Shown here one piece after another: positions 48,390 to 60,625 of a DNA stretch of 64,000 nt. How positions within the stretch are numbered: position 1 is the stretch's first letter; every line of letters begins with the position of its first letter. A program made the position numbers and the translations under genes. Below the pieces are notes generated by a model that worked only from the letters and a program-made list of their open reading frames with translations, was not told where the DNA came from and made no database searches. This DNA is from Escherichia coli (GTDB taxonomy: Bacteria; Pseudomonadota; Gammaproteobacteria; Enterobacterales; Enterobacteriaceae). The stretch lies in NCBI RefSeq assembly GCF_003334785.1, contig NZ_QOWV01000014.1. One strand, given 5' to 3'.

Positions 48390-48399
48390 ATCATCCTCC

Positions 48400-48445
48400 A
48401 CAAAATGATAAAGGCTTTAATAATGATTATCATTTATATTTTCGG
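48400..48445. promoter_or_regulatory. Fur box in the divergent entC / fepB control region
   Basis: ataatgattatcattt, near-palindromic match to GATAATGATAATCATTATC, just upstream of entC start. Confidence 0.7.
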
Positions 48446-48593
48446 TCGCTAACCTAAAAGCAAACGCGCACTATGTCAACTCTTGAGGTAACGCAATCTG
48501 CAACTCGGGGTTGCATCTGGTTGTGGTTACAATGAAAATGAGAAGCATTATTGATGGATTCGCATAAGCGCAATGTGATGTCCTGCGCCGTTC

Positions 48594-48700
48594 TGCCCCC
48601 TCTCCCTTCCAGGGTGAGGGCTGGGGTGAGGGTTAATGTTCGCACCAGTGCTGGCTGTTCCCCTCACCCTAACCCTCTCCCCAAAGGGGCGAGGGGACGG
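48594..48700. repeat. GC-rich inverted-repeat element within the fepB upstream leader
   Basis: ccctctcccttccagggtgagggctggggtgaggg ... ccctcaccctaaccctctccccaaaggggcgaggggac; arms are mutually complementary; second copy of the family at 41168..41272. Confidence 0.6.
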
Positions 48701-48763
48701 ATTGTGCGCTTTGTCGAATTTGTCATTACGCCCTTAACCTTATTAATAACAGGAAGCTGATTT

Positions 48764-49720
48764 GTGAGACTCGCCCCGCTCTACCGCAACGCCCTTCTAT
48801 TAACAGGACTTTTGCTTTCAGGAATAGCCGCAGTTCAGGCCGCTGACTGGCCGCGTCAGATTACTGACAGCCGTGGCACACATACACTGGAAAGCCAGCC
48901 GCAGCGTATTGTTTCCACCAGCGTCACCCTGACCGGCTCACTGCTGGCGATTGATGCTCCGGTGATCGCCAGCGGCGCGACCACGCCGAATAACCGCGTC
49001 GCGGATGACCAGGGCTTTTTACGCCAGTGGAGCAAGGTGGCGAAAGAACGCAAACTGCAACGGCTCTATATCGGCGAACCGAGCGCCGAAGCCGTTGCCG
49101 CGCAAATGCCGGATCTGATTTTAATTAGCGCAACCGGCGGGGATTCGGCGCTGGCACTGTATGATCAGCTTTCCACCATCGCCCCGACATTAATCATCAA
49201 TTACGACGACAAAAGCTGGCAGTCGCTGTTAACGCAACTTGGCGAAATTACCGGGCATGAGAAACAAGCGGCAGAGCGGATTGCGCAGTTTGATAAGCAA
49301 CTGGCGGCGGCGAAAGAGCAAATCAAATTACCGCCGCAGCCGGTCACTGCCATTGTCTATACTGCCGCTGCACACAGTGCCAATCTCTGGACGCCAGAAT
49401 CAGCACAAGGGCAGATGCTGGAACAACTCGGCTTTACGCTGGCGAAGTTACCCGCAGGGTTAAATGCCAGCCAAAGTCAGGGTAAACGCCATGACATCAT
49501 TCAGCTTGGTGGGGAAAATCTGGCTGCAGGGTTAAATGGCGAGTCACTATTCCTGTTCGCCGGTGATCAGAAAGATGCCGATGCTATTTATGCTAATCCG
49601 CTGCTCGCGCACCTGCCTGCAGTACAAAACAAGCAGGTTTATGCGCTGGGAACCGAGACGTTCCGTCTGGATTACTACAGCGCCATGCAAGTGCTGGATA
49701 GGCTTAAGGCGCTGTTTTAA
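48764..49720 (+). CDS. fepB: periplasmic ferric-enterobactin-binding protein
   Basis: 318-aa ORF, GTG start, signal peptide; divergent from entC. Confidence 0.93.
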
Positions 49721-59117: not shown

Positions 59118-59332
59118 TGTGCCTCCTGCAACTGGGTAAAATTCGTCGGTGTCAGAGTACGCCAGTGGGCTTCCAGCCACTGCTGGCAGGACGCCTGTGA
59201 CTGCGGCTGACACACAATGTCCCAGCCTGCCGGTAAGACGCATTGTTGCGGCCACAGACTGAATTGCCCCTGCGCATTGCGCAATATGTAAAACGCTCCC
59301 TGCGGATCATCGAAGGGATTACTGAATGCCAT
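59114..59332 (-). CDS. ybdZ: MbtH-like protein YbdZ
   Basis: ORF 59114..59338; start at MAFSNPFDDPQ... (72 aa); overlaps entF start by 4 nt. Confidence 0.9.
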   Translation of the reverse strand: MAFSNPFDDPQGAFYILRNAQGQFSLWPQQCVLPAGWDIVCQPQSQASCQQWLEAHWRTLTPTNFTQLQEAQ

Positions 59333-59334
59333 AT

Positions 59335-60537
59335 TCAACTCCTGTCATGGAAAAGTGGTTGCCAGAGGTCGATTAGCCCCTGCATCAAGCCACCGCGCCA
59401 ACAAAGCGCATCATGTCCGCCGTCAACCTGACGCCAGAAAATGGATTCTTTTATGGGGTGTAATTGCGCATACAGCGCCTGATTGGCCCGCATGATCATC
59501 GGCTCGCGAATACCCGCTTCCAGCACAATGCGCAGACCTTCGGCGCTAACTTCACCAGCTTTTAGCTTTTCAAGTAACACGCCCTCTTGCTGCCCGCCCC
59601 GATGCGGCCACCAGTACGATCCTGACTGGCTTAATACACAGCCAAAGCGTTCAGGCCAGTGCAGTCCGGCATACAGCGCGGAAAGCCCACCAAAACTCTG
59701 CCCGGCAACCACGGTGCGATCGGCACGATCGCTAAAAGGGGCAATAGCTTTCACCAGGGGTAATAACTCTTGCTGTACTGCGAGCCAGAAATCCGCATTA
59801 CACGGCAGTTCGTGGGCGCGGTGCGTGGTGTCGATAGCGTCGATCAACACATACACGGCGGGAGGAAGTTGCTGACGATGGGTCAGCGAAGTCAGCACTG
59901 GCCAGACGGGCATACTTTGCGCCCAAAATTCGCCATCGAGCAAAACTGCCAGCGGGCGTTCTTCTGCTGTTGCATCGCCGGTGGTAAAAATCCATACACG
60001 CCGTGACTTTTTCAACCGTTCACTTTTCCAGATAATTTCTTTGGCAGGTATTTCTGGCGCTTGCGGACAATCCCATCCCGGTTGCAGAGGCGCTTGCGGC
60101 ATTTCGAGTGCAGAAACAGCGTGCCCTCGCCCGCCTTTCCAGCTTTGTAGGTTCAGCGGATCGGCTATCGCCTGGGGTAATAGTTTTCGCCAGCCTTCGC
60201 GCAATTCGAGGCGATCGGGGGATGGTACAGAAAAAATGTCATCGCGTTCGGTGGGAATAAAGCAGTAGCTGCCGCGCCAGTTGGCATTGAGTTGTGTCGT
60301 CCACTGCCAGACGTTAGTGCCTGCAATTCGCTGCATCGACTGGGGCTGGCTGTTCTGATGGTGATCGGTCACACCAGTGATGTAGACCCATACGCGCTTT
60401 ATCGTCGAGTATTCTTCAGAACCTTGGGGATCACGCCACCAGAAAGTGACCTCAAACATTTCGTCATTCAGACGCTGCCATTCCGGGCCATGTTTCGACT
60501 GCCACCAGCTCTCACTTCCTACTTTTAACGCCGTCAC
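59335..60537 (-). CDS. fes: ferric-enterobactin esterase
   Basis: 400-aa ORF; esterase-D-like C-terminal domain (GQSFGG). Confidence 0.92.
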   Translation of the reverse strand: MTALKVGSESWWQSKHGPEWQRLNDEMFEVTFWWRDPQGSEEYSTIKRVWVYITGVTDHHQNSQPQSMQRIAGTNVWQWTTQLNANWRGSYCFIPTERDDIFSVPSPDRLELREGWRKLLPQAIADPLNLQSWKGGRGHAVSALEMPQAPLQPGWDCPQAPEIPAKEIIWKSERLKKSRRVWIFTTGDATAEERPLAVLLDGEFWAQSMPVWPVLTSLTHRQQLPPAVYVLIDAIDTTHRAHELPCNADFWLAVQQELLPLVKAIAPFSDRADRTVVAGQSFGGLSALYAGLHWPERFGCVLSQSGSYWWPHRGGQQEGVLLEKLKAGEVSAEGLRIVLEAGIREPMIMRANQALYAQLHPIKESIFWRQVDGGHDALCWRGGLMQGLIDLWQPLFHDRS

Positions 60538-60579
60538 ACCATAACCCCATGTTTACTGTGCAATTTTTCATTGATTGCA

Positions 60580-60625
60580 GAAATATATTGATAATATTAT
60601 TGATAACTATTTGCATTTGCAATAG
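60580..60625. promoter_or_regulatory. Overlapping Fur boxes in the divergent fes / fepA control region
   Basis: tgataatattattgataactatttgcatttgc: tandem GATAAT-type hexamers. Confidence 0.75.

Follow-up and report, generated by a model that had tools for sequence, protein, structure and literature searches.

The stretch of DNA considered here, referred to below as the window, comprises 64,000 nucleotides of contig NZ_QOWV01000014.1 from Escherichia coli (RefSeq assembly GCF_003334785.1). It carries the enterobactin (ent/fep) cluster, for which a search of 5,426 complete E. coli genomes gave a match in every one, and the analysis concerns the operators by which Fur controls the divergent promoters of this cluster, together with the probable position of fepE outside this control. 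The window is oriented opposite to K-12, a window position being equal to 673274 minus the NC_000913.3 position. Orthologous loci were collected by a genome scan with FepG, which gave 80 loci from about 80 Enterobacteriaceae species. The RefSeq annotation places the genes as follows:

47214-48389, minus strand, entC
48764-49720, plus strand, fepB
49724-50974, minus strand, entS
51085-53890, plus strand, fepD, fepG and fepC
53887-55020, minus strand, fepE, annotated as wzz(fepE), an O-antigen chain-length regulator
55236-59117, minus strand, entF, with its stop codon at 55236
ending at 60537, minus strand, ybdZ and fes
60780-63020, plus strand, fepA

The original prediction, made from the sequence alone, had identified genes of this cluster and delimited four intergenic intervals (48390-48763, 50975-51084, 55021-55235, and 60538-60779), and both agree exactly with the annotation. 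Each of the four intervals is 100% identical to K-12 MG1655, and the published E. coli enterobactin Fur operators correspond to the same locus in another strain, with identical sequence and zero differences. An Rfam scan of all four intergenic regions returned zero RNA families.

Against a strict 19-bp Fur consensus, only four matches of at least 15/19 are present in the 64 kb, at entS/fepD (16 and 15), fepB (15), and entC (15). Because this consensus under-rates fes/fepA, for which the best match is 13/19, it was replaced by a weight matrix. The matrix was built from 16 K-12 sites, with sequences taken from NC_000913.3, at fhuA, gpmA, fiu, efeU, ydiE, yoeA, cirA, mntH, exbB, nfeF, bfd, ryhB, sodA, fecA, fecI, and fhuF. 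The sites were located by means of Table 4 in Chen et al. (2007, PMC2189734) and centred on the 7-1-7 palindrome; none of them belongs to the ent cluster, in order to avoid circularity. The matrix carries 22 bits of information, and leave-one-out scores of the 16 training sites range from 15.4 to 29.2 bits. The nine top-scoring of the 63,982 window positions all lie within the three divergent regions (726 bp):

centre 48425, 25.2 bits, entC
centre 51060, 18.7 bits, entS/fepD
centre 48546, 18.6 bits, fepB
centre 60608, 18.0 bits, fes/fepA
centre 51054, 15.9 bits, entS/fepD
centre 48431, 15.1 bits, entC
centre 48540, 12.7 bits, fepB
centre 48413, 9.5 bits, entC
centre 60596, 9.3 bits, fes/fepA

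The top scores of the individual clusters, from 18.0 to 25.2 bits, fall within the leave-one-out range of the training sites. When each region was shuffled locally 2,000 times with preservation of dinucleotides, the fraction of shuffles reaching the observed maximum was 0 for entC/fepB, 0.0015 for entS/fepD, and 0.0005 for fes/fepA. By contrast, the maximum in the fepE/entF intergenic region is only 3.6 bits, which 44% of the local shuffles matched. The scan proposed along with the original prediction thus bore it out, since the three divergent regions stand far above background and the fepE/entF region does not. Within the clusters, neighbouring sites overlap and lie 6 or 12 bp apart, which agrees with the account of genuine Fur clusters by Chen et al. 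(2007, PMC2189734), where overlapping sites are shifted by 3 or 6 bp. The best match outside the ent cluster reaches 9.0 bits (AACGGTAATAATTCTCCCA, 30150-30168); it is located inside ybdR and looks like a chance occurrence.

The matches form four operators, to which no strand is assigned:

48404-48440, entC-proximal Fur operator, three overlapping sites with centres 48413, 48425, and 48431, in the published entC footprint
48531-48555, fepB-proximal Fur operator, centres 48540 and 48546, in the published fepB footprint
51045-51069, shared entS/fepD Fur operator, centres 51054 and 51060 plus a 4.0-bit site at 51066, inside the published footprint
60587-60617, shared fes/fepA Fur operator, centres 60596 and 60608, inside the published footprint

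The published DNase I footprints of Fur (PMC2189734), once converted to window coordinates, span 48395-48443 (entC), 48528-48558 (fepB), 51035-51103 (fepD-entS), and 60582-60629 (fepA-fes), and each of the four contains one predicted site cluster. One Fur operator per divergent pair had been expected from the sequence. This holds for entS/fepD and fes/fepA, each of which has a single array, but not for entC/fepB. A single shared operator was rejected for the latter pair, for which Chen et al. (2007, PMC2189734) reported 'two distinctly protected regions' and where two separate arrays are found, one per promoter, with the operator centres 121 bp apart. The strongest entC site (25.2 bits) lies 36 bp 5' of the entC ATG. 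A hexamer scan of this region yielded the following predicted promoters:

-35 TTGACA at 48479..48474 and -10 TAGGTT at 48456..48451, minus strand, predicted entC promoter
-35 TTGCAT at 48511-48516 and -10 GAAAAT at 48534-48539, plus strand, predicted fepB promoter

The fepB operator overlaps this predicted fepB -10 and the start region, and its core block ATGAAAATGAGAAGCATTA is invariant across genera. In an alignment of 37 orthologous sequences, the entC and fepB hexamers coincide with conserved blocks, which suggests that the two promoters stand back to back, each with its own Fur array 3' of its -35.

The entS/fepD operator is located 25 bp 5' of the fepD ATG and 86 bp 5' of the entS ATG; according to Chen et al. 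(2007, PMC2189734), the fepD-entS Fur cluster lies between the promoters and the start codons. The fes/fepA array overlaps the fepA major -10 (TATTAT, 60595-60600), the fepA minor -35 (TTGATA, 60600-60605, paired with the -10 TAGCGT at 60623-60628), and the predicted fes promoter on the opposite strand (-35 at 60622..60617, -10 at 60599..60594). Two fepA promoters and five overlapping Fur sites have been reported there (PMC10763504).

Further experimental data come from strain CFT073, for which Fur chromatin immunoprecipitation with sequencing (ChIP-seq) gave summits at 654906, 664482, and 666892 (Banerjee et al. 2020). A scan of the CFT073 locus found matrix sites homologous to those of the window at 654894/654906, 664473/664479, and 666807 plus 666916/666922, so that all three summits fall on or between homologous Fur sites: summit 654906 is on a fes/fepA site, and summit 664482 is 3-9 bp from the entS/fepD sites. 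RNA sequencing of a CFT073 fur mutant against the wild type gave ratios of 676 for entC, 21 for fepB, 84 for entS, 79 for fepD, 388 for fes, and 274 for fepA (Banerjee et al. 2020). Six operons transcribed from three Fur-controlled bidirectional regions are likewise described in PMC4911079. The proposal that Fur acts on both members of all three divergent pairs is therefore upheld by the footprints, the CFT073 summits, and a 21- to 676-fold derepression of both genes of each pair.

The operators are also conserved. Every orthologous region contains a Fur match of at least 17 bits, with 72/72 for entC-fepB, 74/74 for entS-fepD (here at least 18.7 bits), and 60/60 for fes-fepA (here at least 18 bits), and the offsets of these matches to the start codons are constant in most loci. 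The entC match, part of a conserved block, is kept at about -35 from the entC ATG in most of the 72 regions; the entS-fepD match usually lies at -25 to -31 from the fepD start codon and at -82 to -86 from the entS ATG; and the fes-fepA match is found at about -71 from the fes ATG in most cases. The published footprints constitute the most conserved blocks of the divergent regions, the share of alignment columns matching the window base inside versus outside the footprint being 96% versus 51% for fes/fepA, 85% versus 70% for entS/fepD, and 77% versus 24% for entC/fepB.

The fepB side of the entC/fepB region carries a further element:

48551-48736, plus strand, palindromic 186-bp insertion flanked by TTA in the fepB 5' leader, delimited by alignment with Escherichia, Citrobacter, and Salmonella sequences
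48598-48633 (plus) and 48660-48695 (minus), inverted BoxC/PIT ('TMECO' 7 and 8) motif pair, found by inverted-repeat search

BoxC/PIT/'TMECO' elements have been described as intrastrand-triplex repeats, with K-12 elements 7 and 8 at 624,579-624,614 and from 624,676 (PMC4666352). These map to 48660-48695 and 48598-48633, respectively, and are thus the motif pair of the window. The same study names neither fepB nor entC, nor the junction with the fepB Fur box. The leader RNA has a predicted folding energy of -93 kcal/mol (z = -5). Of the 5,426 E. coli genomes, about 2,500-2,700 gave a full-length match nearly identical to the insertion, and a shorter form occupies this site in E. whittamii. CFT073 lacks the insertion, as do the other Escherichia, Citrobacter, and Salmonella loci compared, in which the intergenic region measures about 188 bp. 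Its left end supplies the last 5 nt (TTGAT, 48551-48555) of the stronger fepB Fur site (48537-48555), and the score of this site is thereby raised to 18.6 bits, as compared to 4.8-7.9 bits in uninserted Escherichia and Citrobacter loci and 11.6 bits in S. arizonae. The neighbouring 12.7-bit site is unaffected. The fepB 5' region has been noted as the sole ent/fep promoter that is not conserved between CFT073 and MG1655 (Banerjee et al. 2020).

In contrast to the divergent pairs, fepE lacks a recognizable Fur operator: a matrix scan of 23 orthologous regions found no conserved Fur match upstream of fepE. Between entF and fepE, the terminator scan identified the following element:

55178-55220, minus strand, intrinsic terminator after entF, with a 13-bp stem AAACCCATAATTA/TAATTATGGGTTT and a 7-nt loop, followed by TTTTTTATTTGTT

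The stem-loop (55220..55188) starts 16 nt past the entF stop codon and is followed by a T-tract. This arrangement of upstream stop codon, stem-loop, and U-tract is that of an intrinsic (Rho-independent) terminator. The RNA is predicted to fold at -13.4 kcal/mol (z = -3.0). The stem contains only 3 G-C pairs, and the efficiency of termination is therefore uncertain. An equivalent hairpin of differing sequence exists in nearly all of the 22 species bearing fepE at this place.

Expression data agree with a boundary at this point. In the CFT073 fur mutant, entF is up 294-fold and fepE 4.9-fold, and no separate Fur ChIP peak is listed for fepE in these data (Banerjee et al. 2020). The drop from 294- to 4.9-fold fits termination between the two genes, and the small effect of fur on fepE would be most simply explained by read-through of the terminator. 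In an extraintestinal pathogenic E. coli strain, iron-poor inactive serum induces fes, ybdZ, and entF, whereas fepE responds to active serum only. Other regulators have been reported as well. H-NS regulates fepE of enterohaemorrhagic E. coli (EHEC) O157, where a promoter fragment drives reporters and binds H-NS (PMC8669466), and SdiA regulates fepE in E. coli (PMC11619404). Both studies likewise place a promoter proper to fepE in the entF-fepE intergenic region, and neither treats the palindrome discussed below. That fepE is regulated differently from the rest of the cluster, as the original prediction proposed, is hence in agreement with its background Fur score, the upstream terminator, its weak response in the fur mutant relative to entF, and the literature on H-NS, SdiA, and RcsB. 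The footprinted EHEC H-NS site TTTGCTGGTTATT has no match in the window within 2 mismatches. It aligns to 55166..55154 on the minus strand, which reads TTTGATGAATATT and differs at 3 of 13 bases, K-12 being the same as the window. The EHEC form of this site was found in a B-strain allele and in strain M6.

The gene fepE is accessory, and its neighbours fepC and entF are convergent. Of 68 species-level loci (L018-L097) in which both of these neighbours were found, 22 have fepE between them, belonging to Escherichia, Citrobacter, Salmonella, Pseudocitrobacter, Pseudescherichia, Intestinirhabdus, and a few Enterobacter. The other 46 lack it, and in most of these the ends of fepC and entF face each other at a distance of no more than about 200 bp. 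Pseudocitrobacter has about 1.6 kb of additional DNA between entF and fepE, with a Fur-like match of 10-17 bits. Within E. coli, the entF-near half of the entF-fepE intergenic region (55021-55235) is unusually polymorphic, with identity down to about 90% (loci L099-L104 were compared), and 536 E. coli genomes gave no megablast match to this region. By contrast, the fepE-near 130 bp are well conserved among the aligned Escherichia alleles. CFT073 has a 246-bp allele resembling that of locus L020; the divergent L020 allele itself, when sought upstream of fepE in complete E. coli genomes, gave zero matches, though CFT073 carries a similar one.

The original prediction had pointed out a weak palindrome upstream of fepE. 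This palindrome, GATAATTATC, does lie exactly at 55086-55095, and it is present in a single copy in the window, for 0.02 expected by chance. However, it is not Fur-like under the matrix used: its best score as a Fur site is -4.8 bits. Nor does it have the 6-1-6 spacing, since the two hexamers share 2 bp. Calling it a weak Fur site is an overstatement, given this score and a regional maximum that 44% of shuffles reach. It forms part of two other candidate elements:

55098..55085, minus strand, RcsB-type box TCGGATAATTATCA, which contains the palindrome and carries a C-to-A change at 55089 (T on the plus strand) in its right half-site
55099..55071, minus strand, predicted fepE sigma-70 promoter, with -35 TTCGGA at 55099..55094, a 17-nt spacer, and -10 TAAAGT at 55076..55071

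When the sequences upstream of fepE are aligned for Escherichia, Citrobacter, Salmonella, Intestinirhabdus, and Enterobacter, conservation is highest in the block TTC(G/A)GATAATTCT(C/G)A. The box of the window starts at -78 from the fepE ATG and aligns column for column across genera with that of Salmonella. In S. Typhimurium, the fepE RcsB box TCGGATAATTCTGA lies at -79 relative to the ATG and spans -36 to -22 relative to the transcription start (Huesa et al. 2021, PMC7913699). RcsB binding to TCGGATAATTCTGA was demonstrated by DNase footprinting and electrophoretic mobility shift assay, RcsB lowers fepE expression (log2 fold change -1.05), and substitutions at a central base of a half-site abolished binding (PMC7913699). 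The window box shares 12 of 14 bases with TCGGATAATTCTGA, at the same position and with alignable flanks, but the window and K-12 have an A where the TC(T/C) half-site of Salmonella, like that of other E. coli strains, has a C. A role of RcsB at the box in E. coli is inferred from Salmonella. The predicted promoter, with a start near 55063, agrees in geometry with Salmonella, where transcription starts 43 nt before the ATG (PMC7913699) and the box lies at -36 to -22. Its -10 TAAAGT aligns with TAGACT, TAGAAT, and TAGAGT of other genera.

The box of the window, TCGGATAATTATCA, differs by this one base from TCGGATAATTCTCA, found in C-allele E. coli and in the other Escherichia compared, and it is this C-to-A change that makes GATAATTATC a perfect palindrome. 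Since the outgroups carry C, A is the derived state. Searches of the complete E. coli genomes with an exact 41-mer found the A allele in 2,375/5,426 (44%) and the C allele in 1,641/5,426. A third variant, TCGGATAAATCTCA, keeps the C and is the one present in CFT073, which has no palindrome. The RcsB consensus TN(G/A)GAN4TC(T/C)NA (Huesa et al. 2021) was not matched by the window box in a pattern search. The sole exact match in the window is TGAGAAAAATCTCA at 35886-35899, inside citR, for about 2 expected, and it looks like a chance hit.

Taken together, these data make it highly likely that the ent/fep genes are under canonical Fur iron control, with fepE outside the circuit, served by its own promoter with an RcsB-type box and shielded by a terminator. 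When iron is plentiful, Fe2+-Fur dimers would occupy overlapping 19-bp sites in arrays, with offsets of 6 or 12 bp, and would block RNA polymerase at six promoters forming three divergent pairs. At fes/fepA, one compact array (60587-60617) would cover core elements of both opposing promoters; at entS/fepD, one array (51045-51069) would serve both genes; and at entC/fepB, each of the back-to-back promoters would have its own array just 3' of the -35 (48404-48440 and 48531-48555). As for fepE, an accessory gene for O-antigen chain length that is inserted between fepC and entF, the terminator at 55220..55188 would shield it from the Fur-controlled fes-ybdZ-entF transcript, and it would be transcribed from a weak sigma-70 promoter of its own. 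The conserved RcsB-type box would lie in the -35/spacer region of this promoter, where the C-to-A change of the window strain and K-12 creates GATAATTATC.

Several points weigh against this account. The hexamers assigned to entC, fepB, fes, entS, fepD, and fepE are predictions. The coordinates of the training sites stem from a model for which ent sites formed part of the training set, and the matrix is therefore not fully independent, although all 16 training loci have experimental support of their own. The E. coli box of the window fails the RcsB consensus at one base, whereas the consensus form TCGGATAATTCTCA is present in orthologues and in 1641 E. coli genomes. Moreover, fepE does respond to fur deletion, and fes-ybdZ-entF-fepE is listed as one Fur-regulated operon in databases and publications (Huja 2014, Banerjee et al. 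2020, PMC10763504). Finally, in some relatives the Fur matrix gives 10.5-13.6 bits at the 3' arm of the entF terminator, where the equivalent position of the window scores 3.6 bits. The matches in question (AATGATTATGGTTTTTTTA and similar, including the T-tract) are located at position 5831 in L104 (CFT073) and at -174 and -182 from the fepE start in L019 and L020, respectively. They are probably a side effect of the AT-rich hairpin, weak direct Fur binding at the arm in those relatives being a lesser possibility.

The competing explanations can be weighed on the same evidence. The chance that the Fur-like matches are composition artefacts of AT-rich DNA is practically negligible. The intergenic regions are indeed AT-rich (31-47% GC), as is the Fur motif itself, but scores as high as those observed hardly ever arise in local dinucleotide shuffles, the fepE/entF region is just as AT-rich (32% GC) and yet stays at background, and the sites occur at the same offsets in most orthologous regions from about 80 species and match footprints and ChIP summits; composition was rejected as a cause on these grounds. 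That fepE is simply the last gene of a Fur-controlled fes-ybdZ-entF-fepE operon, without separate regulation, would account for the operon listings, its position on the entF strand 215 bp downstream, and its 4.9-fold derepression in the fur mutant. This explanation is nonetheless judged clearly unlikely: derepression falls 60-fold over the entF/fepE boundary, where a structurally conserved terminator is found, iron-poor serum induces fes, ybdZ, and entF without fepE, SdiA and RcsB are further regulators of the gene, a fragment with its promoter is active in reporters and bound by H-NS, and fepE is missing from the cluster in 46 of 68 species.

The palindrome itself has been subject to two further explanations. 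As a weak or half Fur site, it would exert a modest direct repression on fepE; it does include GATAAT and ATTATC, both of which are Fur hexamers, it occurs once where 0.02 copies are expected, and fepE responds to fur deletion. Yet the score of -4.8 bits, the 2-bp overlap of the hexamers in place of a 6-1-6 or 7-1-7 spacing, and the absence of a separate fepE peak from the published ChIP list make this very improbable. In addition, the 4.9-fold effect was measured in CFT073, which carries TCGGATAAATCTCA and no palindrome, and a single derived base gave rise to the palindrome, inside a box whose conservation has a different cause. A direct Fur site on fepE was consequently rejected, on account of the background matrix score, the wrong half-site spacing, and the lack of the palindrome in CFT073. 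Alternatively, the palindrome could belong to the -10 of another fepE promoter, which the C-to-A change would strengthen from AATTCT to AATTAT, independently of RcsB. A promoter scan did find TTTACA at 55114..55109, a 16-nt spacer, and AATTAT at 55092..55087 (9/12 matches); TTTACA is invariant within Escherichia, and the polymorphism improves the match to TATAAT. However, Citrobacter and Salmonella keep the box and the downstream TA..(A/C/G)T hexamer but not TTTACA, and the Salmonella start 43 nt upstream of the ATG puts the box at -36 to -22 rather than at -10. Such a promoter is therefore rather unlikely. Returning to the RcsB-type box, the C-to-A change could be a derived regulatory polymorphism at the central base of one half-site of this conserved operator, shared by about 44% of genomes including K-12; this is put forward tentatively, as a genuine but doubtful possibility.

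The Fur architecture of this cluster is already known since 1990-2001 and has since been re-confirmed genome-wide. The start-site work on entC/fepB is reportedly that of Brickman in 1990, while fepA-fes is said to have been covered by Hunt et al. in 1994 and fepD-ybdA/entS by Christoffersen et al. in 2001. PMC4911079 cites this body of work, and Chen et al. (2007, PMC2189734) tabulate it. The value of the present analysis is thus confirmatory, in that raw sequence alone sufficed to locate all the real Fur operators and to single out fepE as the exception. What had been taken for a weak Fur site upstream of fepE can be dismissed as such and re-assigned to a conserved RcsB-type box with a common natural variant in E. 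coli. This single-base variant, whose functional effect is putative, is possibly the only new item. Published expression data and the conserved terminator indicate, moreover, that the database operon fes-ybdZ-entF-fepE overstates the control of fepE by Fur.

Beyond fepA, a match to the small RNA family ES036 (CssrF) of Rfam is present in the fepA-entD intergenic region at 63095-63136 on the plus strand, with 40.5 bits for a gathering threshold of 37.6. Derepression in the fur mutant falls from 274-fold for fepA to 9.8-fold for entD (Banerjee et al. 2020), a drop much like that from entF to fepE.

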